Positions 24,658 to 52,168 of a stretch of 64,000 bases of DNA are shown piece by piece. Below the pieces are notes generated by a model, which searched no databases, was not told where the DNA came from, and worked only from the letters and a program-made list of their open reading frames with translations. Numbering within the stretch: position 1 is the stretch's first letter; each line of letters opens with the position of its first letter. The position numbers and the translations under genes were made by a program. Origin of the DNA: a virus (taxonomy: Duplodnaviria > Caudoviricetes); IMG/VR virus record IMGVR_UViG_3300032030_000073, positions 4,086 to 68,085 of that record; one strand, 5' to 3'.

Positions 24658-24792
24658 GAGATTTCCCCGTCCGGGTGGGCGGGGGCCGTCCGCGCGTGGC
24701 CGACACGCCGGATAGCGGATGTGCGGTGGGTTGGTGTTTTCCCCATGCGCGCGGGCGGCTTGTTTTTGAACGAGGAACGAGAAAGGCAAAAG

Positions 24793-25020: not shown

Positions 25021-25193
25021 TCGACACGAGCATAACGGACGCGGCATTCGAGGACGGATTGGCCGAGCGCCGGCATTCAAGGACGCGCAAGCGGCAGACG
25101 TGCGACACGTGCGCGCACTACGGGTGCTGCGCAGACCTGCACAACTGCGGAGGGATGCGATGGGAGGAGGCCGAAGATGGAACTGACAACTGA
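25017..25193 (+). CDS. Small Cys-rich protein
   Basis: 58 aa, CDTCAHYGCC...C...W. Confidence 0.55.
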   Translation: MIDTSITDAAFEDGLAERRHSRTRKRQTCDTCAHYGCCADLHNCGGMRWEEAEDGTDN

Positions 25194-32435: not shown

Positions 32436-32953
32436 ACAAATCCTATAACATGAACATCGACACCGGCGAGAAGACATGGCTCACCCCGCCGCACATCATC
32501 GAAGCCCTCGGCCCGTTCGACCTCGACCCGTGCTGTCCGCCGACGATGCCGTGGCGCACTGCGACGCGCATGGTGCATTGGCCGGAGGACGGCCTGAATG
32601 TGGACTGGACAGGCAAGCGCGTTTGGTGCAATCCGCCGTACGGGCGCGACGCCGTGCCGTTCCTCCGCAAGATGGCGGAAAACAAGACGGGGGGTGGGAT
32701 TTTGCTTATATTTGCGCGGACTGACACCTCCGCGTGGCAGGACTATATATTCCCGTACGCAAGCGGCGTTCTGTTCCTTCGCGGGAGGCTGCGCTTCCAC
32801 AGGCCCGACGGAACGCAAGGAGAGACGGCTACGGCGCCCTCTGCGCTCGTCGCGTACTTGGATCGGGACTTCATGCGTCTGCGCGAGAGCGGGCTTAGAG
32901 GCGCGTTTTTGCGCGTCTCGAGTTATGCTTTAGGCGGCAGTATCGCGAAGTAA
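32432..32953 (+). CDS. Phage DNA N6-adenine methyltransferase (phage Dam-like)
   Basis: WLTPP, FDLDPC, VWCNPPYG, ARTDT.W, LFLRGRLRF. Confidence 0.9.
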   Translation: MNKSYNMNIDTGEKTWLTPPHIIEALGPFDLDPCCPPTMPWRTATRMVHWPEDGLNVDWTGKRVWCNPPYGRDAVPFLRKMAENKTGGGILLIFARTDTSAWQDYIFPYASGVLFLRGRLRFHRPDGTQGETATAPSALVAYLDRDFMRLRESGLRGAFLRVSSYALGGSIAK

Positions 32954-34131
32954 GCCTCGCCCTCCGCGCGCAGCTCCACGCCGTTGTAGTTCCGCGCGCG
33001 CACGTCGTCCGTGTTGCCGACTATCGCCGTCAGCGCGTTCGCGTCGTGGTGAACGGCCTCGAACATCGTGATGAACGTATGACGCCCCGCGTTCTTCGTC
33101 AGCTTCGCCTTCGCCGCCGACGCCGCGTCAACGAGGTGCCGGCGGAACTGCTTGTTCCTCGTGGTGGCTCCGTCCATGAAGTCGAACGCGCGCATCCACG
33201 CGACGGCCTGCTCGGGGATGGTGAACGCCCTCGGCTTGATCCCCTTGCTGACGCCCTTCGGGATTCCAACGCGGATCGTGCGTTCGTCTATGCTTATCCT
33301 GATTGCGTGCTCGCCGAGTGGAGCGCGGTCGATTTCGCTCTGGCGCATCCCGCAGAAGAACGACAGGATGGCGCATGCGAGGTCCGCGCGTCCGCACGGA
33401 GAGTCGCGCCTGTTCCAAAGCTCGCCGAACAGCTTCTTCACGTCCTCCGCCTTCATGTACTCCGGCTGCCGGTACGGAATGACAATCTTCTTCATCCCGT
33501 CCAGCGGGTTCTCGCGAAGGTACTTCTGCTCGACGTTCGCGCACCACGAGACGAACGCTTTGATGTTGCCGAGGTGGTTGTTGTACGTCACCCACGAGCC
33601 GATGTCGCCCTGCCTGTAGAAGCCGTCCACAAGGTACTTCTTGACTTCCGGCGCGTTGATGTCGGACACGGGCCTCGCCTCTCCGAACGCGCTCACGAAC
33701 GCTCCAACGCGCAGGCGCACGTCCTTCTTGTACGGCTCGCTCTTGTCCTGCACGGCCTTCGCGTAGCCGGCATACGCCTCGCCAATCGTGACGGACGGCG
33801 TCTCCTCCCTTTCAGGCTCGCCCGCGAGCACGATCTTCGCGCACTCCACGAGCGTCATGCTACGCCCGCTCTGCGCGATCATGTCAATAGCCTGCTTGGC
33901 GTCCATCGCCTGGTATCGCGTCAGCACGGCCCCGGCCTCGCCGCTCTGGTCAAGCGTCTTGTAGAACTCGGCTATCTTCTGCTTCAGCCTCTTCTCGTTC
34001 GTCGCGGACTTGCGCACCGGCTTGCCCGTGAAAGGGTCTGTTCCGAAATACGCCTCGTAGATGGCGTACCCACCCTTCTGGACCCTCGCCTTGACCGTGG
34101 CAAGAGCCTCGTTTTTCGGCAAAAAACTCAT
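32923..34131 (-). CDS. int: Tyrosine integrase
   Basis: FFCGMRQSE (R), K in the beta hairpin, KNAGRHTF (His-to-Asn variant of HxxR), RNY (Tyr); N-terminal arm and core-binding regions; adjacent attP. Confidence 0.9.
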   Translation of the reverse strand: MSFLPKNEALATVKARVQKGGYAIYEAYFGTDPFTGKPVRKSATNEKRLKQKIAEFYKTLDQSGEAGAVLTRYQAMDAKQAIDMIAQSGRSMTLVECAKIVLAGEPEREETPSVTIGEAYAGYAKAVQDKSEPYKKDVRLRVGAFVSAFGEARPVSDINAPEVKKYLVDGFYRQGDIGSWVTYNNHLGNIKAFVSWCANVEQKYLRENPLDGMKKIVIPYRQPEYMKAEDVKKLFGELWNRRDSPCGRADLACAILSFFCGMRQSEIDRAPLGEHAIRISIDERTIRVGIPKGVSKGIKPRAFTIPEQAVAWMRAFDFMDGATTRNKQFRRHLVDAASAAKAKLTKNAGRHTFITMFEAVHHDANALTAIVGNTDDVRARNYNGVELRAEGEAYFAILPPKA

Positions 34132-34229
34132 TTTCAACTCCTGTTTTTTGCACCGATTCCTTTGCGAAAAACTTACGAGAAACCGAAGTTTACTCGCAAG
34201 AAACCTAATGCTTGTTTTTCATGCCGCAT

Positions 34230-34533: not shown

Positions 34534-37500
34534 TCACTTCCGGCGCGAACGGCGAATCTTGTCCAGCAGGATCGACTTCTGCCGTTCGATCTCGTTTGTC
34601 AGCGATGCCGTTGGCGTGCCGCCCTTCTTCTCGATGTCCTTCGCCTTGCGCTCAAGCCGGTTGACGGCCTTGATGCGCGCGTCGATGTCGCCGCGCACGG
34701 AATCGGCCATGAGCGGGCTTTCAGACTTCATGCCGTCAAGCAGCTCCTTCCTTTCAGACTGCGTGAGTTCCGCGTCCTTGCTGATGGCGTCGTATGCCCT
34801 CTTTTCTTCCAAGAAGCGGTTGACGGCGTTGTCGTAGGGCTTTCGGTCGTATGTCGAGCCTCCAGCGCCGAGAATCGACAGCGGAACCGTGACAAGCGAT
34901 TTGCCGACGCCGTTCTGCACGATCTGGTCCTTCACGTCATCGAACGTTAGCGGGACGAGCATTTCCCAAACCATATTGCCGACGCCGTACTCTTCGCCCA
35001 CGTAGTCCTTGCCTTCCCAGAGAGCGACAATGGTAGACGCCGACGGGGACAGCTTGCCTTGCAGATAGCGCCCGATCGCACCCATGGTCGTCGGACCGTT
35101 GAAGTCTCCAAACTTCATCACGCGTCCCGTGCTAGAGCGCTTGGACTTCGTTGCCAGCTGATGCACAAGCCTGTTGAACGTCGATTCGCCGCCCGTAAGG
35201 TCTATCGTAGTGTTGCCGATCTTCGGAGAGGCTATCATCATCATCTTCTCGAACCAGTCGGCCTGCGAGAAGTCGTACTTGTCGTCGTCGTCCGAAAACA
35301 GCCATTTGAGGAGCGAGCCGATGGCAAGCATCGCGACGGTCGATCTCAGATGCTCGCGAAGACCGATCTTCGCCGCCGTCTTGCGCTCGTCGTTCGACAC
35401 CTTATCGAACGAACCGTCGGCGTTCTTTATCCCCTTCGCGACGAGCGGATGCCAAATGTCGTATCCGACGGCGGACTGGACGCGGGAAATGGCGAGCTGC
35501 GGCGCCCAGAAGATGTCGTTCACCCACGCCTTCTGCAACGCCTGGCGGCGCTCCTTCGAGAGCGCGGCGGAGCCGTTCCAGATGTTGATCATGTCGGCTA
35601 TCATCTTCTTCTGCCACGGCGTCGCGCCACCTGGAATGCCGTTTACGATGGACGTGTAGAGGTCTGCGGACATGGCGTTGAGGTACGTCAGGTAGTGACG
35701 TTCGCTCTTCAGCATGAACTCGCCGAAGAGCGGGATGTCCGTGATGGCGTACTCCTTGCCGAAAATCTTCACTTTGTTGCGCTCCATGCCGTGGAACATC
35801 TCGACGTCGCGGTCGCTCTGCGCGTCCACTTCGCGGAGGTGAAGTCCGAACTTCTTGACGGCCTCCTGTACGGTCGGGTCGGACAGAATCTCCGTGTTCA
35901 CGTCAAGTAGGCTCGCCTCGGAGCGCGCCGCCGTCCACGCCTTGCCGAACGACCGCGCCGCCTTGACGGGATGTCCGAGCGTCATGCGCGCGGCCTGCCG
36001 AAGGACGGCGGAGAAGTCCATCGTGGCACGAAGCGCGCGCTGGGCGGTCGTGACGAAGCGCAGGAAGTTGACGCCCTTGCGGACGAACGTCGGCACGGTG
36101 GCGTTCTCCGCCTCAAGGCGAAGTTCCGCCAGCTTCTGCCGTCCGCGCTTCATCTGCTCGCCAAGCTCGTCGTACCGCTTCTGCTGGTCTTTCGTCATAG
36201 GCGGCTGCGGCTTCTTCTGCGGACGAATGTCGCCCGTCGCGATGCGTTCCGCGAGACGCGCCAGGGCCTTTTCGCGGCTTGCCATCTTCCGGGCGTTCAG
36301 CGCCTCGATCTCCTCCGGCGTCATGCCGAACGCGTACTTAGCGTTCTTCAGTTCGCGGATGGATTCGCGCACCTGCCTGATGCGGTCGCGCAGCGTCTCT
36401 ATCGTCTCCGAGGTGACGCCCGGACGCTGCGGACGCTTCGAGAAGTCGCCGGACTGCGCACGGGCGAAGTCCTCCATCGCGCGTTCGAGCTCTTTTGCGA
36501 GGAGTTTTTCCGTGAGCGCGATGCGCTGCGCGTCGGTCATCTCGCGCGTCGTTCCGAAAAGTTCGTCGTACTGCTTCTGCAACTCGTCCTTCTCCGCGCG
36601 GAGTTCGCGGACTCGGATGTCGTCAACCACCTTCCGCTTCGGGACTGGTATGCGCTCGCCGGTCTCAATGGCGCGTTTCAGATCAGCGATCCTGTTTTCA
36701 AGGTTCCGTTTTATCGTGTCGAGCGTGCTTTTCAGCCGCCGCTCGTCACGTCCGGCGTCGGGGACTTCCGCCTTTCGGTCGCGCACCCTCTTCGCCCACT
36801 CGCGCTCGTCCTGCGTGGGCTCGTCGCGGATGGGGCCGGTCGCGGGCGGCATCGTGTTCGTCTCGTCCATCCAGTCGATCTGACGCTTCGACCTCGAAAT
36901 GTTGCGGAGGCTGTTCATCAGCCGCTGCGCGTCATAGCGGGACTGCTTGTAGTTGTGCCCGAAGCCCGTCAGCGCGTCACGCACCTGGTTCGCGTCCACG
37001 CCGTCCATGAACGGCGAGATGTCCCGGACAATCGCGTCTATCACCTCTTCCTCGGTGATCTCCGGGTTGAGGAAGCAGTGGTACTCGCCGATCTGGCGGA
37101 GCCACTTGCCCCACGACGGGTACTGCTGGTCGGAAAGCCCGATGAGCGTGCCGCCCGTCTCGGCCGCGCCGACCTCGATCTGCGTGAGCGCGTCCTGGTA
37201 GTTCTGCGCGACCTTGCGCGCCACGTCGCCCACCTTGCGCTCCGTGGCCTTGCGCACCTTCAAGCCGTTCTTCGTCTGGTCGATGACCTTCTTGGAGAGC
37301 GGGATAAGCCGTTCCGTCGCAAGGCGCAGACCTTCCTCGTCAAGCCCCTCGAAGAGCTTTGCGAGGTCGCGTATCCGCGCGTTCATTTCTGGCGTAATCT
37401 TGTCAATGCCGCCAAGGGTCTGCGCGATCCTGCCCGCGATTCCCGCATACGAATAGTCGTGCGCGGCGATGAGCGCGCGGTTCGAGCGCAGCGCGCGGCC

Positions 37501-40500
37501 CTGCTCGGACGCGCCCATCATCGCCGCCTTGCCGGCCTCCGCCATCTGCGCCTTGGCCTGCGCCAGCTTCGCCGACACCTGCCTCAGCTCGTCCCGCAGC
37601 TCCGGCGTCTTGTTCATGTCGTCCTCCGGGATCGCCGCAAGTTCGGCGCGGCGTCTCTCCAGGTCGTTCACGGCGGCCTGCCGCTGGCGGAACAGCACAT
37701 TCAGCGCGACGTTCTCGTAGTCGCGCGTCGGGCGCGGGAACTTCGCCACGGCGCGGGAGAGCTTCGCCATGTACGTGGGGTTGGAGAGCAACGTCTCCAC
37801 CTGCCTCCACATGTCCGCGTCCGTCTTCCTGACGTGCGCGGGTGGCTCCATGCCCGCCGCCTTCAGCGCGGTGGCGATCTCGTCGTTCGTCATGCCGTAC
37901 ACCTCGCGCATGATCTTCTCGGTGGGCGTCTTGTCCTCGCTTGCGGCATACTCCGCCTCGGCGGGCGTAAGCTCCGGCGTGTCGAAGCTGACAAGAGATT
38001 CGCCGAATGGGCCGCGAGGGTCTTCAATGTCGCGTTCGATAGCTTTGTACGCATCGTTTATCTTCTGCGCGACGCGATTAAGCCGTTCAAGGTCTTCTCC
38101 CTTAAAGTTGCCCGACTCTACAAGGTTCTTCAACGCCTCCGCGAACGGCCCGGCCTCTCCTGGGCCGATCGCATACGGATCGAAGTGCATGGAAATGCTG
38201 GCTTCGCCGGATTCGATGGAGTCGAGGATTTCCAGCAGGTCGCCGTTTGTGTACCAGTCAATTTCCTCACGGTCCTCACCAATTCCGTTCCGTTTAAGTT
38301 CTTTCAGCTGGTCGCGCAGTTCCTTCGCGTCCTCGCGATAATACGTCTCTCGTTTTTTGTAATAGTCCACATTGAGCGGATCTTCTTCGGCTAATCTTTT
38401 TTGCTCCCTCGCCTTTGCGTTATCCTCATTGATGCGCCGCTTGAGGTCACGCGCCTCAGATTCCGACGGCGTGTCGTCGGCACCCGCTTTGATATTCCGC
38501 TTCGCAGTCTTGCGCAGGGCGGCGATGTCGTTCAGCATTTGTTCATCATGCGTGGAAATCCACCACAGAGAATGGTCAAGGCGTTCTGGAACCGACGAAT
38601 AATCGGCGCTTAGTTCCGGCGTGTCGAATTGCAGGACGCCGTCGGTCCACTTGTGGTCCACGCGGATGTGCTCGTCCGAGAACGCGACGTAGTTCCACCC
38701 CGCCTTGTCGCCGTCCTTAAGAGTTTTGCCATACGAGTCGACCGGGTACTTCACACCGTCGATGCCGGCTCGCGCAAGGAACTCGGAAGCGGCTTTGGGT
38801 CTATTTGACGTTCTCGGGAAGAACTGGCATGTCAATTTGTATAGGTCTTCGCCTGTCTTGACATTGATGTTTATGTAGCCACCGTTCAACGTAACCGGCT
38901 GATAATAATGTCCGGTTCCATCGTCCGCCCACAGAAGAATCTTACCGTCTTCGTCCGTCCTTCCATATTCATCTTCACGTATTACCCCCTCTTCTTTGGC
39001 TTTGTCTATGATACGATTCACAAGTTCTTGCTCTACCGGCTCGTACCACTTCAAGAGGTGGCTCTCGTCGCCCGGCGCCCGGTTCGTGAAGAACGTTTGC
39101 TCGTAGAGGTGATTGTTTGTACCATACCCTTTAGGGATTATCGCATCATGCCAAGTCGACTTCTCAAGAATGTCTTTAACAACTTCCAAGCCTTCGGCAA
39201 ACTTGTCGTGAGCAAGGCTTTTATGCTTATCAATGGCTTCGGAGACTTCTTCGATAGCCTTTTGTCTTGATGTCTGATTCCACCCGTGCTTTCTCAACTT
39301 CTCACGTGCAGAATCAATCGCCCATTTGGGAAATCCATTTTCGGGCATATCATAACCAGGGTCTTGGGCCAATCCAGATTTGCGAAGACTATCATCATGC
39401 GCATACCCCTCCGCGACGCCGCGCTCTGTGCTCCCGTAGAGCCCCCAGCCGTAGACCTGGCTGCCCTCGCCCGTGCCGATGTACTTAACGCTCGGCCCGT
39501 CGTCCACGCCGCCCTGGCGCGAGCGGTTCGCGTAGTCCGCCGCCGTGCCGGTGTAGATGCCGGGCGTGTCGAAGTCCACGCCGCCCTGCAACGCCCGGAC
39601 GCGCTCCGCGAACTGCGCCTTGAGTTCGGCGCGCTCCGCGTCCGTCTTCGCCGCCCTGTACGCCGCGTCGATGCGCTGGAGGGCGGGGTCGCTGCGCATG
39701 GCCTCCCTTGTCTGCTCCGCCACTCCGCGCCGATATGCGTTGCGCTCCTCTCCCGTGAGCGTGTCCTTCATGCCCGTGGCGGAAATGTCGCCCATCGGCA
39801 CGGTGCGCGTCTCGACCTTCTCCGGCGCGTAGCGGTTCGCGCCCGGCGTGCGCACCTGCACGTCCGCCGTGCCGTCTGCGTTCGCCTTCAGGAACGTGAC
39901 GCGCTGGCCGTCCTTCGCGCCCTTCAGGAACACGCGGTCGCCGCGCTTGAACGCGGGCTTTTGGGGTTTTTCGCCCGTAAAAACGGGCGACACTGGACGC
40001 GTCGCCGTAGGTTTTGCGGCTGGCGCGGCGTTTTCCGCCGACTCCCCACCCTGTGGCGCGCTTGCGGGCGCTTCGTCCCACGAATCGTCGTACTCGCCGA
40101 TCTCGTCAAAAGCCTGATTGGTGGCGCGCCTGACGGCCTCCTCGTATGCCGCGACCTCGCGCTGACGTTGACGGGCAATCTCGCTTCCGTTCGCGTAGTA
40201 TTTCCCAGTCTTGGGGTTTATCACCGAGTGGAACGGCGCTTTCTTCTTGAGTTCGTCGGCGATCTTCTTTGCCTCGGCCATCTTGGCTTCCCAGTCGGCC
40301 TTTGAAGTCGCCTTCGTGAATGTCTTTGGGAACTTCACGTCCGGCAGTTCGACTTCGTACTCCCTGCCGTTCTGGACGATTCGTACAGATTCGCCGTCTC
40401 GCGTCGTTTTCACCACCTGTGGCGCGTCCGCGCTCTTCGGTGGCGTAGTCGTGCCATCCGCGCGCGGCGCGCTTGCAAGGGCGGCTTTGGCGGGTTTCCG

Positions 40501-43500
40501 CGCCGCCTGCTTGCGCTGCCATTCCGCGAAACGCCCGTCGGTGTCCTTCATCTTGTACTTTTCAAGCCACGCAAGGTATTCTGCGGGGCGTTCCGCAGCC
40601 TTCTCCTTCGCGGCGGGCGCGGTCGCTTCACTCTCCGCGATAGGCGAGAAAAGGTCCTGCTGGCCGGTCTGGCCCAGGTCCATCTCCGGCTGCACGTTCA
40701 CCGCGCCGCTGCCCTTCAAGGGCGCTTCCTGGCGCTTCTTGATCTCCGCCTTTTCGCGGCGCTTCTTCTCCTCGGCGGTTATCTGCTCTGCCGTGACACT
40801 TTCGAGCGAGAGTTGCGGCGCGATGCCGAGGTCCGCGTCCATCTGCGCCTTGTCCGCGTCGTCCAGGCGGATCGCGTTCTCCCAGTAGTTCGCCCTCTCC
40901 ACCGCCTTGTCGCGCGCGGCGGCGAGCTGCGCCTTGTCCTTCGGATCGGATATGCCAAGCTCCTTCGCATAGTCCTTGTTGAGGTCGAGACGTCCGCCCT
41001 TGCGCATGGCCGTGCGCAGGTTCTCCGCGATGCGCTTGTACTCGTTCGCCTTCTTCGCGCGGTAGTCGGCGCGCTTCTCCTCCTGCTGGAGCAGAGCAAC
41101 ATCCTCCTCGCTCGTGAAGAGGTCGAGCTGCGTACCGCTGTCGGCCTTCGGCGCGTTCTTGCGGTTCTTCGCCTCCTCTGCGAGCGAACGCGCGAGGATC
41201 GCTAGCTTCTTCCCGCGAACGCCGTCAAGCGCGCGGCGCACGAGGATGCGCTGGAGCGCGGCCTGTTTCGGCGCGGCGTCCGCGATGATTGCGGCCTGCT
41301 CGGCGGAGATCAGTCCGTCTCCGCCTGTTCCTTCCCAGTCGATTGCGCCTCGCGTATCGTCTGTCGCATTTTGGACAATGCCGAACGCCATGCGGCCTTT
41401 CTGCCTGTTGAGGATGCCGGAGGATTTTGCGTCCTCCTCGCTGAATCCCGATTCCTCGAAGAATCTAACATAGTCTTTCACCGTTCCTTTCTCGTCGAGA
41501 ATGTTCGCAACCGCGTCGTAGAGACGCATGTCCTCCGGCGTGTAGCCGTCGGCCTCGCGGAATATGCGCGCGTCGATGTCCTTCCAGCCGGAGCGTTTCG
41601 CCGCGTCCAGCCTGTGGCGGCCCGTCACGATTTCCATTGTGCCGTCCTTGCGCTCGTAGATCGCGATGGGGTTCTCGGCGTTCTCGTAGTATTCGCCAAG
41701 CTCCTGCCCCTTCACGACGCCCGTCTTCGGGTCGGCGTTCTCCTTGAACTGGGTGTCGGGAATCTTGATTCCGTCAACCGGCACGCGACGGCGCTCGCCC
41801 TTGCGGTGCATGACGTTCCAGAAGCTGCTCTCGCTCATGGGCTGCCGCCCCGCATCCCCGCCGATGGTATCGGCGGGCGCAGGACGCTCGGCGGTGTTCA
41901 AATTTTGACCGCCGTTGTCAGATTTTGACGGCTCTACCACTCCCGCATCTGGCGCTTGCGCTCCCGGCTCCGCTCCCGCTTCGGGTTGCGGCGCTTCTTG
42001 CCCCCGCTCTTCGCCCTGTTCGGGCTGCGGCTGTGCTTCATCGGTTCCATTCCTTGCTTCATCCGTTACTCCTTCTTCGTATCTCACTCCGCTGTCACCC
42101 GGCAGCGTTTCAAGCTCGTTCTCGCCCTGCGCGCCCTGTTTCTCCGCCTCGGCGAGCATCACCTCAAGGTCGGACTGGTCTATCGGCACGTTCTCGCCCG
42201 CGTCGCGGCGGCGCTGGTTCAGCTCGTGCTTCCGCTTCTCGTACCACGTCGGCTGGTGGAGCCGTCCCTGCGCGTAACGCGCCATGGCCTCGCGCGCGTA
42301 CTCGTCCATGGACATCGCGGCGGCGACCTGCATCCTCGCCGTGTCCTCGTCCATGCCGGCCGCAACGAATCTCTGCACGGCCCTCTCCTGCTCCGCGAGA
42401 ACGAACTTGCTGAAACCTTCCGCCTGCGCGTTCTGGATGAACTCAACCGTGTTCGCGCCGCGCCCCGTGGCGCTCTCCACGCCCTCGTGGCCCGTCGCCT
42501 CGTGCGCAAGCACGCGCTCCATTTCAGCAGGAGACGGCACGTTGTCGAGGATCACCACGATATGCCCGTCTGGCGTGTGGAAGCCGCCCGCGCCGGGCTG
42601 CTTGAGGCTTCCGTCTGCCTTGAAGAGCTGGTCGGCGCGCGTGATGCCGTAGATGTTTCCGCCGTCGTTGATTGCCTGCGCAACCTGCCAGCGCAGCGCG
42701 GCCTCTGACGGGATGGAAACGACGTTTCGCCCAGCATACTGGCGCTGTACGAGCCCCGTGAGATACTGCGCCTTCTGCGCGTTGTCCGCGTCCATCGACT
42801 GGTTGCGCACGACTTCCTCGTCTGCCTTTTTCTGCGCCTCCTCGAACGAGTACGCGGGAACGGCGTCAAGTCCCCGGAAGTCGTTCATCACGTAGAACGT
42901 GCCGTCGCCCTGGTCCACGATCGTCACGCCGTGCGCGGCGTCGGTCATCGCGTTCATCGGCGCCTGCTTGCCGTCTGGCGTGAAGCGCATCATCTGCTGG
43001 AACACCGGCTTGCCATCCTCTCCGGTCTGTATCGTGAACCTCTCTGGCGCGATACCGCGCTGTTCAAGCGACTGGCGCATCTTCAACCCGTCGCGCGCCG
43101 TCAACTCGTCAACAGCGGCCCTCATCGAATAACCGAGGTTCTTCACTTCTTCCTTCAGCTTGTCCGGGTCGGCGGAATACTGTTGCCACATCTCAGTCAG
43201 TTTTTGCTGCTGCTCCGGCGTGAGCGTGGAGATCGTCTCGTCTGAAATGCCGGAGCGCTTCAGCGCCATGCGGATGTCGCGGCGGGCGTCCGCGGACGAT
43301 ATGTGCTGCGCGACACCCTCGCTCGTGCTCTTCACCGCGCCGATCGCAAGCTGGGCTACGAGCCCGTAGAAGATGTCCCACTGCGTCTGCCAGTTGAGCT
43401 GGTTGTCCTTGAAGTCCTGCCATTCCTGCGCAAGCCCCTTGTATTCAGAAGACTTCCCGTCAAGGCCAATCACCTTCTCGAACGCCTGCACGTTCTCTTC

Positions 43501-45450
43501 CGCAAGTTCCCCGAGCGGGGAGTTGATCTGCGTCATGGCGGTGAAGTCCTGGTACGCCCTGTTGATCGAGCGCAAAGCCTGTCCGGTTTCGGACGCCATG
43601 AACTTGTTGAACCTCTTCGTGCCGAACTCCCTCACCGCGCTCGGCGTCGCCTTGCCGAAAGCCCACCCCGTCGCCTTGCCCGCGCCGCGCAGAAGCCCCA
43701 TCGTGACCGATTCAAGCCCCACCTCCACGGCGGTGTCGAATATCGCGCCGCCGATTGCCTTGTACGCGGCTTCCTCCTCGTCGTCGGGGGCCGCGACCAT
43801 CTTGAACTCGCCGTTGTCGTCAAAACCGTACTCGGGCGTGACGTTCTCCTGGTAGCGGGACATGGCCTCCGTCGCGACAACAGGCACGGCGGAGCCGAGC
43901 ATGGTGGCCGCGCGCACGGCCTTTGCGCCCCAGTTGAGCGCCTGCGCGCCCTTGAACATCGCACCGCCGGGGAGCGCGAACTCCAGCGCGTAGCCGCCCG
44001 ACTCGATGCCGCCCTTCACGATCTTGTCGAGGATGCTCTGCTCCGTCGCGGACAGCTTTCCGCCCGCGTCGAGCTTCGCGATTGCGTCAAGGCGCAGCTC
44101 CTCTCCCGCGTCGTGCTGGATGCGGCCCATGAACTCCGCGTCGTTCTCGTCTGGACGCAGCGATTCAAGCGGGTTCCACGGCTCCAGTCCCGCCTTGCGC
44201 GCGGCGTCGCGGTATTTCTCCGCTTCCGTCTTGCCATCGTAGCCGTCCAGCTTGCCTTCGTAGATGTTGGAGAGGTGTCGCGTGCGCTCGCGCTGCTCGT
44301 TCGGGGCCGAGCGCCCCGCATACGGCATGAGCCTGTCGTACACGGCCTTCGCCGTGCCGAGCCAATCGTCGGTGTAGCGGCGCCTGTCGCCAGTCTCCGC
44401 GAGCGCGCCGAGCCGGACCTGCTCGAACGGCGAGCGCTCCACCTTGCCCTCGCCCTTGCCCATCATGCGGTCGAAGTCCTCGTCGCGGACGTGCAGCTTG
44501 CCCGCCACCATCGCGCCCTCGGACGAGACGCCTTCCGTCTCCTTGAACACGGGCTTGCCGTCGTCACCAACGCCGGTGAACTCCATCAGGCGCGCCGCCT
44601 GCCCGGCCTCGCCCGTGAACGGCCCGTCTCCCTCCTTGTGGTAGACGGCTATCGCGTCGCCGGGCTTGATGGCGTTGCCGTCGGCGTCCTCCAGCACGTC
44701 TCCAGTGAGGAACAGCTCGGGCGCGACCTGCGTGGTCTTGTTTTCCAGCTCCCGCTTGCCGTAGACCGGGCCTGCGATGGACTGCCCGAGCAGGACATTC
44801 TCGTACTTCTTGGTCGCCATCTGCGCGGCCTTGTCGCCAGACTCCTTGACTCGCGCCTCGCGTTTTCTGCGCGCGCGTTCGCCGCGCACGCCTGGGTCGT
44901 GGCGGATTTCGTCGCCCATGTCGTCCCAATGCGACTGGATGTATTCGTTCCAGCCTTTCTGGTAGGCTTTCTGGTGCTCGTCGTGGACGGCACGCGCCAT
45001 CTTGCGCGCCGAATCCTCGTCGTCGGCCTTGCCCCAATGCTCGCCCGTATCGGCGTAGTGCCTGACGGCATCTTCCTGTGACAGCTCCTTGCCGTCAACG
45101 ACCATGGGGATTACCGCAATCTTGCCGTCGCGGTCTTGCACGAGCATTGACTTGGTGGTTGAGTACCCGCTGACCTTGCCGTTCGCGCCGCGCCGGATGA
45201 GCGGCTTGCGCCCTTCCGTGCGCAGATTGCCGCCCCATTGGTTCGTCTGGCCATCAGGCATGGTGGCTGCGCCGCCGTCGCCAGACTCCCATGTGGGGAC
45301 GGGTTGTGCGTCCGCAGAAGCTGACGCCACGGAACCAGTTTCACCAGACGGCCCACCCTCGTCGTCCTCTATCTCGAAACCGCCAAACGCGGAAGAAGAG
45401 GACGGCTTCTTCTCGTCGTCCTCTATCTCGAAACCTCCAAAATCTGCCAT
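34534..45450 (-). CDS. Giant (3638 aa) polyvalent internal-virion/ejection protein: metallopeptidase-like HExxGH, ParB-like and ART-like domains
   Basis: LAHEATGHEG (about 42490), IVTGRHRLDAA (about 41610), IGTGEGSQVYGWGLY...GIDGVKY...NYVAF (38640-39560); last gene of the late operon after two other ejection-type genes. Confidence 0.85.
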   Translation of the reverse strand: MADFGGFEIEDDEKKPSSSSAFGGFEIEDDEGGPSGETGSVASASADAQPVPTWESGDGGAATMPDGQTNQWGGNLRTEGRKPLIRRGANGKVSGYSTTKSMLVQDRDGKIAVIPMVVDGKELSQEDAVRHYADTGEHWGKADDEDSARKMARAVHDEHQKAYQKGWNEYIQSHWDDMGDEIRHDPGVRGERARRKREARVKESGDKAAQMATKKYENVLLGQSIAGPVYGKRELENKTTQVAPELFLTGDVLEDADGNAIKPGDAIAVYHKEGDGPFTGEAGQAARLMEFTGVGDDGKPVFKETEGVSSEGAMVAGKLHVRDEDFDRMMGKGEGKVERSPFEQVRLGALAETGDRRRYTDDWLGTAKAVYDRLMPYAGRSAPNEQRERTRHLSNIYEGKLDGYDGKTEAEKYRDAARKAGLEPWNPLESLRPDENDAEFMGRIQHDAGEELRLDAIAKLDAGGKLSATEQSILDKIVKGGIESGGYALEFALPGGAMFKGAQALNWGAKAVRAATMLGSAVPVVATEAMSRYQENVTPEYGFDDNGEFKMVAAPDDEEEAAYKAIGGAIFDTAVEVGLESVTMGLLRGAGKATGWAFGKATPSAVREFGTKRFNKFMASETGQALRSINRAYQDFTAMTQINSPLGELAEENVQAFEKVIGLDGKSSEYKGLAQEWQDFKDNQLNWQTQWDIFYGLVAQLAIGAVKSTSEGVAQHISSADARRDIRMALKRSGISDETISTLTPEQQQKLTEMWQQYSADPDKLKEEVKNLGYSMRAAVDELTARDGLKMRQSLEQRGIAPERFTIQTGEDGKPVFQQMMRFTPDGKQAPMNAMTDAAHGVTIVDQGDGTFYVMNDFRGLDAVPAYSFEEAQKKADEEVVRNQSMDADNAQKAQYLTGLVQRQYAGRNVVSIPSEAALRWQVAQAINDGGNIYGITRADQLFKADGSLKQPGAGGFHTPDGHIVVILDNVPSPAEMERVLAHEATGHEGVESATGRGANTVEFIQNAQAEGFSKFVLAEQERAVQRFVAAGMDEDTARMQVAAAMSMDEYAREAMARYAQGRLHQPTWYEKRKHELNQRRRDAGENVPIDQSDLEVMLAEAEKQGAQGENELETLPGDSGVRYEEGVTDEARNGTDEAQPQPEQGEERGQEAPQPEAGAEPGAQAPDAGVVEPSKSDNGGQNLNTAERPAPADTIGGDAGRQPMSESSFWNVMHRKGERRRVPVDGIKIPDTQFKENADPKTGVVKGQELGEYYENAENPIAIYERKDGTMEIVTGRHRLDAAKRSGWKDIDARIFREADGYTPEDMRLYDAVANILDEKGTVKDYVRFFEESGFSEEDAKSSGILNRQKGRMAFGIVQNATDDTRGAIDWEGTGGDGLISAEQAAIIADAAPKQAALQRILVRRALDGVRGKKLAILARSLAEEAKNRKNAPKADSGTQLDLFTSEEDVALLQQEEKRADYRAKKANEYKRIAENLRTAMRKGGRLDLNKDYAKELGISDPKDKAQLAAARDKAVERANYWENAIRLDDADKAQMDADLGIAPQLSLESVTAEQITAEEKKRREKAEIKKRQEAPLKGSGAVNVQPEMDLGQTGQQDLFSPIAESEATAPAAKEKAAERPAEYLAWLEKYKMKDTDGRFAEWQRKQAARKPAKAALASAPRADGTTTPPKSADAPQVVKTTRDGESVRIVQNGREYEVELPDVKFPKTFTKATSKADWEAKMAEAKKIADELKKKAPFHSVINPKTGKYYANGSEIARQRQREVAAYEEAVRRATNQAFDEIGEYDDSWDEAPASAPQGGESAENAAPAAKPTATRPVSPVFTGEKPQKPAFKRGDRVFLKGAKDGQRVTFLKANADGTADVQVRTPGANRYAPEKVETRTVPMGDISATGMKDTLTGEERNAYRRGVAEQTREAMRSDPALQRIDAAYRAAKTDAERAELKAQFAERVRALQGGVDFDTPGIYTGTAADYANRSRQGGVDDGPSVKYIGTGEGSQVYGWGLYGSTERGVAEGYAHDDSLRKSGLAQDPGYDMPENGFPKWAIDSAREKLRKHGWNQTSRQKAIEEVSEAIDKHKSLAHDKFAEGLEVVKDILEKSTWHDAIIPKGYGTNNHLYEQTFFTNRAPGDESHLLKWYEPVEQELVNRIIDKAKEEGVIREDEYGRTDEDGKILLWADDGTGHYYQPVTLNGGYININVKTGEDLYKLTCQFFPRTSNRPKAASEFLARAGIDGVKYPVDSYGKTLKDGDKAGWNYVAFSDEHIRVDHKWTDGVLQFDTPELSADYSSVPERLDHSLWWISTHDEQMLNDIAALRKTAKRNIKAGADDTPSESEARDLKRRINEDNAKAREQKRLAEEDPLNVDYYKKRETYYREDAKELRDQLKELKRNGIGEDREEIDWYTNGDLLEILDSIESGEASISMHFDPYAIGPGEAGPFAEALKNLVESGNFKGEDLERLNRVAQKINDAYKAIERDIEDPRGPFGESLVSFDTPELTPAEAEYAASEDKTPTEKIMREVYGMTNDEIATALKAAGMEPPAHVRKTDADMWRQVETLLSNPTYMAKLSRAVAKFPRPTRDYENVALNVLFRQRQAAVNDLERRRAELAAIPEDDMNKTPELRDELRQVSAKLAQAKAQMAEAGKAAMMGASEQGRALRSNRALIAAHDYSYAGIAGRIAQTLGGIDKITPEMNARIRDLAKLFEGLDEEGLRLATERLIPLSKKVIDQTKNGLKVRKATERKVGDVARKVAQNYQDALTQIEVGAAETGGTLIGLSDQQYPSWGKWLRQIGEYHCFLNPEITEEEVIDAIVRDISPFMDGVDANQVRDALTGFGHNYKQSRYDAQRLMNSLRNISRSKRQIDWMDETNTMPPATGPIRDEPTQDEREWAKRVRDRKAEVPDAGRDERRLKSTLDTIKRNLENRIADLKRAIETGERIPVPKRKVVDDIRVRELRAEKDELQKQYDELFGTTREMTDAQRIALTEKLLAKELERAMEDFARAQSGDFSKRPQRPGVTSETIETLRDRIRQVRESIRELKNAKYAFGMTPEEIEALNARKMASREKALARLAERIATGDIRPQKKPQPPMTKDQQKRYDELGEQMKRGRQKLAELRLEAENATVPTFVRKGVNFLRFVTTAQRALRATMDFSAVLRQAARMTLGHPVKAARSFGKAWTAARSEASLLDVNTEILSDPTVQEAVKKFGLHLREVDAQSDRDVEMFHGMERNKVKIFGKEYAITDIPLFGEFMLKSERHYLTYLNAMSADLYTSIVNGIPGGATPWQKKMIADMINIWNGSAALSKERRQALQKAWVNDIFWAPQLAISRVQSAVGYDIWHPLVAKGIKNADGSFDKVSNDERKTAAKIGLREHLRSTVAMLAIGSLLKWLFSDDDDKYDFSQADWFEKMMMIASPKIGNTTIDLTGGESTFNRLVHQLATKSKRSSTGRVMKFGDFNGPTTMGAIGRYLQGKLSPSASTIVALWEGKDYVGEEYGVGNMVWEMLVPLTFDDVKDQIVQNGVGKSLVTVPLSILGAGGSTYDRKPYDNAVNRFLEEKRAYDAISKDAELTQSERKELLDGMKSESPLMADSVRGDIDARIKAVNRLERKAKDIEKKGGTPTASLTNEIERQKSILLDKIRRSRRK

Positions 45451-45464
45451 CTTGAATCCTCCGT

Positions 45465-46943
45465 TTAGACGCGCTGCCAGGTGAGCTTGCCGGGGTTCTT
45501 CTTGCTAGGGAGCAGTTTCATCCTGATTCCGTTGATCTCCTGCACGTCGCCTTCCTTGAACTGCCTTCCGTCGCCGCCACCATTATCGCCCGTCTTTACC
45601 TCTGCTTTACCGGACGGCGACGGGGGTTCCGGGATTTTTTCACCGCGTTGCTTCAAGGACTCTTCAATTCGCTTGGCGTGCTCCCTCATGGCGTTGCGAT
45701 CGGTTTCGTCGTTCAGCAGATCGTTCGCGAACCGAAGCGCCTCGACATATTCGTGGGTCGTCGGCGGCCTTCCGCCTATCGTGCCCCTGCTCTTCATTTC
45801 CGCCATCTTGGTCTTCAGCTCGTTCGCCTGCTTCGCGCGCTCGTTGCGGCCCTTCTCGTTCTCGGCCTGCTGCGACTCGACGGCCTGGTTGTGCCGCACG
45901 GCCTCGGCGAGCTTCTTCTCGTCGACGTCGTACCCCTGCCGTTTCAGCTGTGCCGTGAGGTCGGCAACCGAAAGCCGCGTCTCGTTCTGCGCAGCCGCCC
46001 TCTCACTCTTCGCGTTCTCCTGTATCTGCGCGACGCGCTCCTTGTCGCTCACGCCTCGCGTCACGCTCTCTATCGTCTGGCCCTCCGGCACGAAAACCAC
46101 CTCGCCGGTCTTGTCGTTCTCGTAGCGCGTCCCGCGCCGCCCGTCGCCGTGCGACCCGCTCGACAGCACCTTCCACCTGCCCTTGTTGTCGGGCGAGCGC
46201 GTGCCGTAGCCCTCGCGCGACACGCTCCCGTCCGGGGCGATGCTCGTGTTAGAGAAGCCGCCGCGCCCGTCGGAGCTGAACACGGCGCCACCGCGCCTCT
46301 CGGGCGTCCCCATCCACGAGCCAGGCACGCGGATCCCGCCAGTAGGCGACCTCTGGCCGACCGCCGCCTCGCCCCACCCCTCCGGCAGCTCGGGAACGTA
46401 CTTGTTGGCCATGTCCATCGTCCAATGGTTCTTGCGGATGATGTTCTCCCTCAGCGACATCATCTCGTCCCTGTTGAGTATTCCGGGGTTCTCGCGCGAC
46501 ATGTTGTAGATGTCGGCGGCGGACACCTCCTTCTCCTCGTTGCTCATCTGCCCGGTCTGCGGGTCCCTGCTCGCGATTCCGAGGACCATGTTGAAGTTGG
46601 GCGTGACGCCCGCGCTGTACATCGCGCGCGTGTTCATGTCGAACCCCAGCGCGTCGTTGACGCCGGGAACCATCTGCTGCGGCATCCTGTTGTGGTTCAT
46701 CAAGGAGTATTTGTACGCGGCAAGCAGGTTCACGGCGCCGTTCCTCGCGCGCCGCGCCCTCTCCATCGCGTCTTTCTGCATGATCTGCCCGTAGTTGTCG
46801 AACACCGCGCGGTTGCCGTTGACGATTCCGGCCATCATCTCGGCGCGTCTCTGCATCGCCGCGTTCTCGCGCTCCGCGTTCTGCTGCCGAAGAGCCGCGT
46901 CCCAGCCGTTTTCGCCAAAACCATTTTCTTCCATCTCGTCCAT
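45465..46943 (-). CDS. Probable ejection protein 2
   Basis: 492 aa, helical and low-complexity, lies between the Ala/Gly-rich gene and the giant gene; C-terminal ...GKLTWQRV. Confidence 0.7.
   Translation of the reverse strand: MDEMEENGFGENGWDAALRQQNAERENAAMQRRAEMMAGIVNGNRAVFDNYGQIMQKDAMERARRARNGAVNLLAAYKYSLMNHNRMPQQMVPGVNDALGFDMNTRAMYSAGVTPNFNMVLGIASRDPQTGQMSNEEKEVSAADIYNMSRENPGILNRDEMMSLRENIIRKNHWTMDMANKYVPELPEGWGEAAVGQRSPTGGIRVPGSWMGTPERRGGAVFSSDGRGGFSNTSIAPDGSVSREGYGTRSPDNKGRWKVLSSGSHGDGRRGTRYENDKTGEVVFVPEGQTIESVTRGVSDKERVAQIQENAKSERAAAQNETRLSVADLTAQLKRQGYDVDEKKLAEAVRHNQAVESQQAENEKGRNERAKQANELKTKMAEMKSRGTIGGRPPTTHEYVEALRFANDLLNDETDRNAMREHAKRIEESLKQRGEKIPEPPSPSGKAEVKTGDNGGGDGRQFKEGDVQEINGIRMKLLPSKKNPGKLTWQRV
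45582..45611 (-). promoter_or_regulatory. Late-promoter-like motif, copy 3 (inside the upstream CDS, before the giant gene)
   Basis: Minus strand GGTAAAG-CAGA-GGTAAAG-ACGGGC-GATAAT. Confidence 0.55.
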
Positions 46944-46956: not shown

Positions 46957-48549
46957 TTACTTGTTCATGTCTCGCCACATCTGGAGCTGCGCGTCAGTCT
47001 TCGCGTCGCCAGTCTCAAGAAGCTCTCCGCCGACGCCGTAGTGGCGTCCCGTGTTCGTGCTGACCGACGAGCCGCCGCGCGTCATCGCGCTGACGCGCGT
47101 CGACTCCGTGGAGTTCGTGATGTTCGCCTGCTGGAGCTTCGCGTTCGTGATCGAGTTGCCCGCGCTCTGCGTCGTGCCGGCGAGGTTGTTGTACGCGCTC
47201 GTGATCGCGTTGCCCGCGTTCTGCGTCGTGTTCGCGAGGCTCTGCTGCGCTCCGGCGATGTTCGACCCCGCCGTGTTCGTGACGCCGGCGAGCGTGCCGT
47301 ACGCGCTTGCGACGTTCGACCCCGCGGTGTTGTACAGCCCCGCGAGGACGTTGTACGCGGAGGCCAAGTCCTTGTTATGCCCAGTAACGAGGTTGGACGC
47401 GTTGCCGTAGATGTTCGCGACGGTGTTCCTGCCCGCCGCGACGTCGCCGAGCACGCCCGCCTTGTTGCCCTGAAGCGTTGCCGCCGTCCCCTGGAGCTGG
47501 CCGGAGCTCTGCAACACGCCGGCCGCCGCGTTCTGCGCATTGACCGCCGCTCCCTGCCCGGACGCGCCGATGGACGCGAGCTGTCCGCCAGTCTGGAGGA
47601 ACTTGTTAGCGTTGTTCGCGATGAGGTTCTGGAACGCCGTCGCCTTGTCGTTGATGCCGCGCTCCCTCGCGCGCGTCATGGCCGCCGCCTTCGCCACGGC
47701 GAGCCCCTGCTGGAACAGCTTCTGCAACTGCGCCTGCGCAGAGCCGCCGGACGGGTTCACGCCCTGCCGCGCGAGGTTGCGGTTCATCTGCCCCTGCGCG
47801 TTGTCCATGCTCTTCTGCACGTCCTGCGCGGCCGACGCGACGTACCTGTTCGGGTCGATCTGGCCGTAGACGCTCAACGCCTCCGCGACGAGCGGCGACG
47901 CGCCGGCGTCCATGTTGATGAAGCCGATGCCCGTGCCGAGCGTCGCGAGGGCCTGCTCCGTCACCTTCGTGCCGCTCTCCCACATCTGGTCGCCGTAGCC
48001 GCCGAGCTTGTCCGCGTACGGGAGCATCGCGGTCGCCGCGTCGCCCACGCCCCTGATATACGGGTCCATGCCGCGCGCGGCGTCCTCCGCGTCGTCGTAG
48101 CCCCTGTTCGCGGCCTCGGCCTGCGCGATCATGTTGTTGTAGGCGGAGTCCACGACGCCGCGCCCCGACAGTATCGCGTCGACGCCGCTCTGGCCGGACG
48201 AGATCGCGTTGTCGCCGTAGCTCGTCGCCGCGTCTACGCCGCTCTGCGCGGAGTCTATCGCGCGGTTGCCGTAGTCCTTCGCGTAGTCAACTGCGGCGCT
48301 CGACCTGTCTATCGCGTCGTCTCCGTATGTCTTCGCCGTGCCGACGCCGCTGTTCGACGCGTCGATCGCCGCGTCGCCGTAGGACTTCGCGGAGTCCACT
48401 GCGGACGCCGCCTGCGAGCGCGCCGTGGTAATCGCGTCGTCCAGCGCGTTGCTTGTCGCGCCGCTCGTGCTGGTCCTGCCGCTCGACAAGTCCGCAAGGC
48501 CGTCCACTTTCGCGTTGAACCGCGAATTCTCCAATATGCTTTGAGCCAT
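46957..48549 (-). CDS. Probable ejection protein 1 (Ala/Gly/Ser-rich)
   Basis: 530 aa from ATG 48549 (GGAGG RBS, ATGA coupling); AAQDVQKS...RNLARQGVNPSGG motif; 18-aa repeats. Confidence 0.72.
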   Translation of the reverse strand: MAQSILENSRFNAKVDGLADLSSGRTSTSGATSNALDDAITTARSQAASAVDSAKSYGDAAIDASNSGVGTAKTYGDDAIDRSSAAVDYAKDYGNRAIDSAQSGVDAATSYGDNAISSGQSGVDAILSGRGVVDSAYNNMIAQAEAANRGYDDAEDAARGMDPYIRGVGDAATAMLPYADKLGGYGDQMWESGTKVTEQALATLGTGIGFINMDAGASPLVAEALSVYGQIDPNRYVASAAQDVQKSMDNAQGQMNRNLARQGVNPSGGSAQAQLQKLFQQGLAVAKAAAMTRARERGINDKATAFQNLIANNANKFLQTGGQLASIGASGQGAAVNAQNAAAGVLQSSGQLQGTAATLQGNKAGVLGDVAAGRNTVANIYGNASNLVTGHNKDLASAYNVLAGLYNTAGSNVASAYGTLAGVTNTAGSNIAGAQQSLANTTQNAGNAITSAYNNLAGTTQSAGNSITNAKLQQANITNSTESTRVSAMTRGGSSVSTNTGRHYGVGGELLETGDAKTDAQLQMWRDMNK

Positions 48550-48722
48550 CACTGCCTCCTCTCTGTTGCCTTCAACCTCGCCTCCGCCGCCGCAAGCCGC
48601 CTTGCGAGCGCGCGGACGTTCTCGTTCAGCTTCATCACCGCGTCGCGCGCCTGCAAGTCCGCGATGTGGTGGAACGGTATTGAGCCGTGCGGCAGCGCCG
48701 CCATTGTCTTCTCGTTTGCCAT
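48549..48722 (-). CDS. Small coiled-coil virion-associated protein (57 aa)
   Basis: MANEKTMAALPHGSIPFHHIADLQARDAVMKLNENVRALARRL...; absent from the ORF track; coupled at both ends. Confidence 0.6.
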   Translation of the reverse strand: MANEKTMAALPHGSIPFHHIADLQARDAVMKLNENVRALARRLAAAEARLKATERRQ

Positions 48723-48725
48723 CAG

Positions 48726-51700: not shown

Positions 51701-52168
51701 AGTGCCGTTAGAGCCGCCAGCCGCATTGAGGGTCACGGTGTAGGAGTTCGCCGTCCACTGCCCGTACACGGTGATGTCGCTCGTTACGTTGGTGAATGCG
51801 CCGCTCCATCCAGTGAACGTGTACCCCGTCCTTGACGCAGTGGGCGCGGTCGCGCTGTTTCCGTAGAGGACGGTTTGCGACTTCAGCAAATCCCCGCCGT
51901 TGTAGCGGTAGAAGTTGACGGTGAACTGCGCGGTGTAGATTTTGGCGTCAATAGAATAATCGTCAGTTATTTGCGCCGTGTAATCGCCCGTGATTGAGAC
52001 GACAGAACTTGTCGCTCCGTAAATCTTATTGGTGCACGTTATCGTGATCGGCAAAGGGTAGTTTGTGAATGTAACCTCTTGCACGCCGCTGTATATCGTC
52101 TGCCCGTTCTTGTTCTTGACGCTGAATGTTCCCGGGCCCGAAAGACTTACTTTCCCTGTATATCCCAT
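48726..52168 (-). CDS. Ig-like repeat stalk (about 6 Listeria-Bacteroides/InlB-B repeats plus about 5 divergent repeats) fused to the nozzle C-terminal fragment
   Basis: Repeats of YTVTL..GG..G...V.ATYG...PTRTGYTF.GYY...TLYA.W; the last roughly 95 aa are AWEG...MEWKSG...ATGYPV...RLPRMRPERFWQVSV. Confidence 0.82.

Follow-up and report, generated by a model that had tools for sequence, protein, structure and literature searches.

A giant polyvalent protein with a conserved chassis and an exchangeable middle in a temperate short-tailed phage, and its probable role in ejection

What might a temperate short-tailed phage gain from ending its late operon with a single gene for a protein of 3,638 amino acids (aa)? 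The question is raised by a virus (Duplodnaviria; Caudoviricetes) known from a 68,085-bp IMG/VR record with direct terminal repeats (IMGVR_UViG_3300032030_000073), of which we analysed the 64,000 nucleotides from position 4,086 to 68,085. This stretch is called the window, and coordinates refer to it unless stated otherwise. An earlier reading of the sequence, the original prediction, had described the gene product as an injected polyvalent protein with peptidase-, ParB- and ADP-ribosyltransferase (ART)-like domains, in other words as an ejectosome subunit carrying several enzymatic effectors. The protein is a further member of the already described class of polyvalent ejection proteins, from an unstudied host group. 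We think it likely that it is the largest internal (ejection) protein of the phage, in which a conserved chassis is combined with exchangeable cargo. The features that deserve to be recorded are its cassette grammar based on an FDTPE motif, a zincin with an HExxGH motif, and a large unnamed family with an ART fold in which threonine is typical where histidine would be expected.

The open reading frame (ORF) is uninterrupted (Table 1). Its start is well supported: a GGAGGA ribosome-binding site precedes the ATG by 7 nt, and the upstream gene ends with a TAA 14 nt before the same ATG. Nor is it a chance ORF, since it is matched at E <= 1e-9 by 96 further giant proteins, in most cases at E = 0. 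Both the ORF and all the motifs quoted in the original prediction are present in the sequence, namely HYADTGEHWGK (residues 131-141), HEATGH (983-988), TGRHRL (1276-1281), IYTGTAADY (1965-1973), GTGEGSQVYGWGLY (1992-2005), KIGNTTIDLTGG (3410-3421) and YLQGKLSP (3462-3469).

Profile searches confirmed none of the predicted domains at threshold, an outcome that, read literally, would refute the original prediction by its own standard. Neither PHROGs nor Pfam, the latter applied to the full-length sequence and to ten overlapping fragments, gave a match that reached the threshold. Below it there were ParB_N (E 0.046; 14.2 bits vs a cutoff of 26.3), LPD14 (E 0.017, a weak hint in residues 450-887) and a weak ParB-like match to PHROG 723 (E 7.5e-4). 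When the PDB was searched by sequence, the full-length protein and its ART-like block (module A in Table 1) gave only coiled-coil or chance matches. As the profiles confirmed no domain at threshold, relatives and predicted structures were examined, and there the folds did appear: the ParB/sulfiredoxin (Srx) fold with strong support, the zincin and ART folds with moderate support.

The 96 giant relatives, found in a search of 5.8 billion proteins, range from 2,084 to 5,817 aa. When their BLAST segments were mapped onto the window protein a clear block structure emerged (Table 1). Most of the relatives share the N-terminal chassis, the C-terminal chassis or both, and the middle varies. In three of them (P0002, P0003 and P0013) the backbone is 80-85% identical to that of the window protein and the middles are different. 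The middles of relatives carry ART-PolyVal, LPD3, LPD38, Kinase-PolyVal, Zeta toxin, SNF2/ResIII helicase cassettes, MuF_C, RadC and ddrB-ParB, and among relatives matching at E = 0 there are proteins with PF18760, PF18857, PF18798, PF18762, PF18819 and PF18763. These polyvalent domains of its relatives bear out the assignment to the polyvalent class. In the window protein itself zincin, ParB/Srx and ART folds occur in one ORF, as judged from predicted structures and invariant motifs and not from Pfam thresholds, and the gene lies among late/virion genes.

The borders of the middle cassettes are unusually sharp. The G+C content (GC) is 0.542 in module A and 0.538 in module B, as against 0.65 in the adjoining blocks. 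The other blocks of the gene have values of 0.63-0.66, except for the final C-terminal part with 0.61 (the last 590 codons, 34537-36300 on the minus strand). The shift coincides exactly with the FDTP(E/G) peptides, of which there are three (residues 1960, 2275 and 2489). In the 97 proteins FD[TS]PE occurs 122 times, where 0.37 occurrences would be expected from composition. It is always found in the variable middle, and its extended consensus is [VI]-[DNQ]-F-D-[TS]-P-E-[LF]. Among the loci with available DNA there is hardly any variation in the core TTC GAC ACG CC; in the Ser variants AGC and TCG codons both occur, and the codons on either side vary. Where module A ends, it can be aligned with the DIR[YF]S end of ART-PolyVal modules. 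The FDTP(E/G) motif is certainly a cassette boundary; it is possibly also a protease site.

The giant gene is the last of the minus-strand late operon and is followed by the integrase. Before it come, in this order, the nozzle base, the nozzle stalk, a 530-aa protein and a 492-aa protein. The giant gene thus belongs to a short series after the nozzle, as is usual for podophage internal core or ejection proteins, and the order parallels those of cyanophage A4 (A-4L) and Aeromonas phage 4_4512. The same succession of nozzle base, stalk, a protein of about 428 aa, a protein of about 400 aa and a giant gene recurs in two contigs from Kiritimatiellia-type metagenome-assembled genomes (MAGs), L007 and L010, at 33-34% identity for the nozzle base and 28-29% for the first mid-size protein. 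These contigs may be prophages or mis-binned phage contigs. Their giant genes lie at 7712-21793 (L007; >4,498 aa) and 8177-21670 (L010; >4,694 aa). The 530-aa protein consists to 61% of Ala, Gly, Ser, Asn, Gln and Thr; the 428-aa protein that takes its place in L007 and L010 is a homologue. The 492-aa protein has a weak SSB match (E 2e-4), finds no support in Pfam or PHROG, and has no homologue at the same position in either contig.

In cyanophage A4 the nozzle is followed by gp29, gp28, gp27 and gp26, and the pre-ejectosome resolved within the capsid contains all four (PMC12002296). The best solved structural match of module A is a domain of A4 gp27 in PDB 9k3a chain B, a chain that can be identified as gp27 (1,717 aa) because its residues go beyond 1,600. 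The match is by structure only: when A4 gp27 was aligned by hhalign with module A or ART-PolyVal no signal appeared, and Pfam found nothing on A4 gp26 and gp27. The gp27 domain contains SLYHGT...GEWGSGTYFS, an ART-type motif pair to which PMC12002296 makes no reference. Unlike the window protein, A4 gp27 has 1,717 aa and keeps the His, and there is no detectable similarity at the sequence level. The gene for gp27 is located at 20116-25269 on the minus strand of KF356198 (L004), and the matched domain corresponds to residues ~1418-1606.

Further evidence comes from the N-terminus. Aeromonas phage 4_4512, which is P22-like, encodes three 'DNA transfer proteins' in succession, and the domain around HYADTGEHWGK is matched by the N-terminal end of the third (tblastn E 3e-4; hhalign 96.7%, E 4e-10, 84 columns). 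With P22 gp7, gp14, gp16 and gp20 hhalign of this domain gave no signal. At the other end of the protein residues 2489-3638 are conserved in 65 relatives. The last 100 aa, a basic helix, recur in relatives with LPD38 in a C-terminus that is otherwise different (hhalign 97%), the region ~3353-3503 aligns weakly with the LPD38 region (hhalign 53%, 146 columns), and 25 of the 30 named language-model (Atlas) neighbours carry LPD38. Pfam found no match to LPD38 (PF18857) in the window protein. These alignments might hint at an LPD38-like region in the C-terminal chassis, which we mention only as a lead.

Residues 810-1430 were modelled with AlphaFold2 and 28 relatives, using an alignment of the window piece with whole relatives in which the alignment of the blocks was checked first. 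The mean predicted local distance difference test score (pLDDT) of the model was 79, and two domains with values of 85-95 are separated by a disordered acidic linker. The first is zincin-like. H983, E984, the glycine and H988 of its HExxGH motif are conserved in 66 sequences, together with an invariant E1054 on a later helix. The structures listed for this domain are anthrax lethal factor (N-domain and catalytic domain), the predicted zincin 3e11, Certhrax, SPRTN, the peptidase domain of the ArdC antirestriction protein and PprI. Dipeptidyl peptidase III enzymes (DPP III; M49) are typified by the hexapeptide HEXXGH, and an ortholog from a thermophile has the pentapeptide HEISH (PMC5805324). 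As DPP III uses HEXXGH, the variant in the window protein is compatible with zinc binding. The peptidase-like domain of the original prediction is therefore retained at the level of a moderately supported predicted fold with an invariant HExxGH and Glu, and its motif has to be read as HExxGH and not HExxH. On this structural model the domain is probably a peptidase.

The second domain is a ParB/sulfiredoxin N-domain followed by a helical domain. Foldseek matched residues ~1191-1430 to Noc, chromosomal ParB and KorB (E 1.7e-6, probability 1.0, template modelling score 0.55-0.60), and these matches span both parts. The arginine motif GxxR is invariant as T-G-R-H-R at residues 1276-1280. The ParB-like domain was thus correctly recognised in the original prediction, and strongly so at the level of the fold; it is not of the DdrB type, and Pfam found no DdrB-like ParB (PF18763) in the window protein. 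Since this ParB/helix-turn-helix (HTH) unit is situated in the chassis and not in the cargo, it fits a DNA-associated role like that of A4 gp26 and gp27 in the capsid. The ParB block is also the part of the core with the only relatives in cultured phages (41% identity, E 2e-18), in giant proteins of Vibrio and Shewanella phages annotated as methylases. One of them, the 2,715-aa protein of the 37-kb Vibrio phage 1.211.A (MG592581, record coordinates 12708-20855; L003, 1076 onward), bears no annotation other than 'N-6 adenine-specific DNA methylase'. The ParB block is matched at 41% identity by residues 475-616 of this protein, which is another unrecognised polyvalent protein.

Module A comprises the span 38640-39560 that had been put forward as ART-like. 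Its AlphaFold2 model, for which the alignment was prepared in the same way, had a pLDDT of 65.5 with a well predicted core and a poor loop between strands 1 and 2. Foldseek found nothing significant for it in the PDB. In an exhaustive VIA search every match spanning the beta core (model residues ~33-348) was an ADP-ribosyltransferase, with values of 5.5 for SAIP, 5.4 for Arr, 5.3 for the anti-CRISPR 6kyf, 4.3 for NatT, 3.9 for PARP4 and 3.6 for cholera toxin. Among predicted viral structures (BFVD) there were 18 matches at E <= 1e-3, and short proteins of 191-232 aa named ART-PolyVal matched at E 3e-3 to 2e-2. The split beta-sheet core of the ART superfamily is found in the model, which gives moderate support for an ART fold in module A.

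Module A can be compared with the ART-PolyVal domain (PF18760; Tox-ART-HYD2 clade). The two are alike in their predicted ART fold, in the collinear motifs Y-x-G (strand 1), G-x-G-x-Y (strand 2) and x-D-G-V (a further strand), and in being found in the same giant proteins. Profile alignments connect the two families only weakly, although they are collinear: YTGsAADY was placed opposite vYHGs (probability 74%, 39 columns) and IDGVKY...NYVsF opposite yDGvi...yv.f (probability 32%), and large alignments reached only 4-6%. However, the PF18760 hidden Markov model (HMM) gave no match at E < 1 for residues 1850-2300, nor in ten other module-A proteins over that region, and module A differs in having Thr or Ser in place of the His in 132 of 133 sequences, a helical insert of about 90 aa and about twice the length. 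Moreover, ART-PolyVal occurs at other positions in relatives that have module A. In P0035 module A occupies residues 1972-2265 and ART-PolyVal 2519-2592 with LPD3 between them, and in P0013 the respective positions are ~2200-2499 and 2668-2749. It follows that module A represents a separate family, for which a scan of 1.84 billion cluster representatives yielded 1,122 members at E <= 0.001 and 111 at E <= 1e-30, in giant as well as mid-size proteins. The Pfam copy used has no model for it. As for the ART-like module of the original prediction, then, the fold stands with moderate support and the link to Pfam ART-PolyVal gives way to a separate Thr-type family; the YTG noticed there in place of YHG was correct and is the signature of the whole family.

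The polyvalent ARTs have as their hallmark H (strand 1), Y (strand 2) and D (strand 5), and the strand-1 His is a defining residue of the active site (PMC5512222). Among the best 150 module-A sequences the corresponding position is T in 127, S in five and H in one of 133. Y2005 is kept in 134 of 136 and D2231 in 145 of 147 of these sequences, and a dozen other polar residues are nearly invariant. The triad of the module is likely to be T1967/Y2005/D2231, D2231 being the probable strand-5 Asp on a weak alignment. A triad T-Y-N with N2253 was considered and dropped, as the collinear alignment puts D2231 opposite the YDG strand of ART-PolyVal. Because the family has Thr where His is usual, NAD-dependent ADP-ribosylation by module A is uncertain on the sequence evidence.

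A separate canonical ART-PolyVal domain is present in 41 of 145 module-A proteins, which suggests a recurrent pairing of a Thr-type and a His-type ART in one polypeptide. In four examined (P0104, P0128, P0035 and P0013) the canonical domain lies downstream of module A.

Two explanations of module A have to be considered, and we hold both of them tentatively. It is possible that the module is catalytically active and represents a new kind of enzyme derived from ARTs, whose Thr-type site (T1967, Y2005, D2231 and many invariant polar residues) would still transfer ADP-ribose from NAD+, or use another nucleotide substrate, and act on a host target after injection. Against this, the His that defines the H-Y-D polyvalent ARTs (PMC5512222) is absent, no Pfam ART model detects the module even at E < 1, D2231 was assigned on an alignment of 32% probability, and the confidence of the model is moderate, with a poorly predicted loop between strands 1 and 2. 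The other explanation, which we think equally possible, is a non-catalytic ART-fold domain serving as a structural or binding element of the ejectosome, or as partner or regulator of a true ART. This would agree with the loss of the NAD-binding His, with the best structural match, gp27 forming the outer, DNA-contacting layer of the A4 pre-ejectosome, and with the 41 proteins having both domains, as expected of a paired accessory domain. Yet module A is optional (~31 of 96 relatives), has a foreign GC and lies outside the chassis; the window protein has no canonical ART with which it could be paired; and the A4 gp27 domain retains YHGT.

How could the parts of the giant protein work together? 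In the reading we favour, the N-terminal 1,600 aa and the C-terminal 1,150 aa would form a chassis for packaging into the head, exit through the tail and perhaps the handling of DNA ends. Its N-terminal portion would run from an ejection-protein N-domain through a helical region and the HExxGH zincin to the ParB/Srx-HTH unit, which would bind nucleotides and DNA. The middle would hold exchangeable cargo cassettes between FDTP(E/G) junctions, here the variable stretch followed by the Thr-type ART-fold module and a rare helical module. On infection the giant protein would exit the capsid with the DNA, so that enzymatic modules reach the cytoplasm, and the zincin might possibly cut in cis at the FDTP(E/G) junctions. 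Processing by an in-cis peptidase has been proposed for the polyvalent class by Iyer et al. 2017 (PMC5512222). The composition of the window protein, with only 2 Cys and no hydrophobic segment of membrane-spanning grade, also speaks for ejection. The ejectosome subunit of the original prediction is upheld in part: synteny behind the nozzle, an N-domain in common with an annotated DNA transfer protein and the structural match to A4 gp27 speak for it, and the effector activity of the ART-like block, with Thr for His, is uncertain.

Several observations weigh against a packaged and ejected protein. Its presence in the virion, or that of a close relative, is argued by analogy with JC1 gp69, phi24B gp47 and A4 gp27. 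The 'DNA transfer protein' of Aeromonas phage 4_4512 is so named by annotation only and has no detectable relation to P22 gp16, and with any cultured phage the protein shares at most the ParB block or an N-terminal stretch of 90 aa. Domain assignments cover only about 40% of its length, and no peptidoglycan hydrolase domain was found in it. Such a domain is present in many ejection proteins. Moreover, the junction core TTCGACACGCC hardly varies at the DNA level either, so that the motif may be a recombination joint only and not a cleavage site. Some of these points would suit a giant protein that remains unpackaged and acts in the cytoplasm, late or when expressed from the prophage, in anti-defence or superinfection exclusion. 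Its gene is the last before the integrase, a typical site for accessory genes, virion localisation is by analogy, a hydrophobic stretch of membrane-spanning length was looked for and not seen, and a cell-wall hydrolase is likewise lacking. We regard this as improbable in view of the tight coupling to the structural operon (14 nt), the synteny conserved in distant relatives, the N-domain in common with a protein in ejection position, the structural match to a solved ejectosome protein and the detection of analogous giant proteins in virions. Very large genes ending tail modules often encode fibres, but an external tail fibre or host-recognition protein is very hard to reconcile with a mostly helical product having zincin, ParB and ART folds; profile searches detected no fibre or receptor-binding family in it, and a separate tail protein is encoded at 57919-60450. 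A more elaborate version of ejection would be a self-processing polyprotein, in which the zincin cuts V-D-F-D-T-P-E-L junctions after ejection and frees a Thr-type ART-derived enzyme whose chemistry is unlike His-dependent NAD+ ADP-ribosylation, for example with a different donor or in the capture of NAD-derived defence signals. This we consider unlikely.

The favoured reading, an ejected chassis with cargo, has parallels in known systems. N4 virion RNA polymerase gp50 (~3,500 aa) is packaged and injected and has an N-terminal injection region, central cargo and a C-terminal region with a zincin needed for encapsidation (summarised in PMC5512222); it is the studied precedent for the three-part layout. 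The window protein differs from it in the position of the zincin, which is in the N-terminal half, and in the temperate nature of the phage. No RNA polymerase was detected by Pfam or PDB sequence search of the giant protein, predicted structures covering residues 810-1430 and module A only. Burkholderia phage JC1 gp69, Bcep22 gp75 ('DarB-like'; PMC9144972) and gp47 of the Stx phage phi24B have 2,800-4,600 aa and, like the window gene product, are encoded late in the virion module of temperate podophages. JC1 gp69 (4,515 aa) was represented by 51 unique peptides in mass spectrometry of purified virions (PMC9144972), and phi24B gp47 was detected in purified virions and proposed to be an ejection protein (bioRxiv 10.64898/2026.04.10.717836). 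The window protein differs from these in being without a methylase/helicase (DarB-type) cassette, and LPD38 is only weakly suggested. In the phage collection searched, tblastn found no record with similarity beyond the ParB block and the N-terminal 90 aa. With the polyvalent proteins of Iyer et al. 2017 (PMC5512222) it has in common a huge polypeptide from the late/virion block, unrelated enzyme-like domains, and hubs of zincin and ParB type; it is distinguished by the lack of a named Pfam polyvalent family at threshold, by HExxGH, by a ParB that is not of DdrB type and by the Thr-type ART block.

Uncultured Kiritimatiellia of the gut and related bacteria of the Planctomycetes-Verrucomicrobia-Chlamydiae (PVC) group, in which phage entry and counter-defence are almost unstudied, appear to be the hosts of the phage and its relatives. 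Full-length matches to the core came from MAGs labelled Kiritimatiellaeota/Kiritimatiellia (human Hadza gut and cattle rumen), Verrucomicrobiota and Lentisphaeraceae, and one giant relative is named as coming from a Kiritimatiellia bacterium. Judging from this binning of MAGs, the host is probably a gut member of the PVC group. Since the overall class has been described before, the giant gene as a whole is not surprising. The value of the family lies rather in being a clean natural case, with a fixed delivery chassis, in-frame exchangeable cargo, a defined junction motif and cassettes of foreign GC. With the sharp junction motif and these cassettes it becomes possible to test directly a prediction of long standing, namely that the peptidase of a polyvalent protein cuts it into separate effectors. 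In addition, the analysis defines a large unnamed domain family with an ART fold and Thr or Ser for the catalytic His, absent from the Pfam copy used, and finds in a solved ejectosome protein, A4 gp27, an ART-like domain that was not described as such in PMC12002296.

Table 1. Giant gene, blocks and domains of its product, and neighbouring genes (window positions)
Feature	Position	Strand	Residues	Remarks
Giant ORF	34534..45450	-	1-3638	ATG 45450, stop 34534; 3,638 aa, 404 kDa, pI 5.5, 2 Cys
Ribosome-binding site GGAGGA	45457..45462	-		7 nt before giant-gene ATG
N-terminal part			1-449	~25 relatives
N-terminal domain with HYADTGEHWGK	44968..45237	-	72-161	
Core			450-1600	50-67 relatives
Conserved chassis segment	42790..44103	-	450-887	
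Zincin-like metallopeptidase domain	42076..42789	-	888-1125	
HEATGH motif	42487-42504	-		six-residue HExxGH
Acidic Pro/Gly-rich linker	41881..42075	-	~1126-1190	predicted disordered, pLDDT below 50
ParB/sulfiredoxin N-domain and helical DNA-binding-type domain	41161..41880	-	1191-1430	
TGRHR motif	41608-41625	-		within ParB unit
Conserved helical segment after ParB	40651..41160	-	1431-1600	end of N-terminal chassis
Variable stretch (variable region 1)	39574..40653	-	1600-1959	6-23 relatives
Junction 1, FDTP(G)	39562..39573	-	1960-1963	
Module A, ART-fold cassette with helical insert	38617..39573	-	1960-2278	~31 relatives; GC 0.54
Junction 2, FDTPE	38614..38628	-	2275-2279	
Module B	37987..38616	-	2279-2488	rare helical cassette, ~5 relatives; GC 0.54
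Junction 3, FDTPE	37972..37986	-	2489-2493	start of C-terminal chassis
C-terminal block (C-terminal chassis)	34537..37986	-	2489-3638	strongly conserved, 65 relatives; long coiled coils
Globular region, possibly LPD38-like	34942-35394	-		C-terminal chassis
Basic helical tail	34537-34842	-		~100 aa, C-terminal chassis
Tail protein	57919-60450	-		
Nozzle base	52170-53594	-		PHROG 511
Nozzle stalk	48722-52168	-		
530-aa Ala/Gly/Ser/Asn/Gln-rich protein	46957..48549	-		candidate first ejection protein
492-aa protein	45465..46943	-		directly upstream of giant gene; candidate second ejection protein; variable between relatives
Integrase	32923-34137			after giant gene

A few minor observations complete the picture. 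Megablast and tblastn of module A and of the C- and N-terminal chassis against cultured phages and plasmids returned only the ParB block, one 90-aa N-terminal match and one weak match in an archaeal virus, and single-sequence searches for related loci in viral contigs gave 0 loci and 1 locus. No terminator was found 3' of the giant gene. The gene of the 530-aa protein had been listed as a 662-aa ORF (46957-48945). The first 132 codons of this ORF are Arg/Trp-rich, and its TTG start at 48945 overlaps the end of the nozzle stalk gene (stop at 48722). The true start is probably the ATG at 48549, which has a GAGGAGG site 6 nt upstream and gives a protein of 530 aa.

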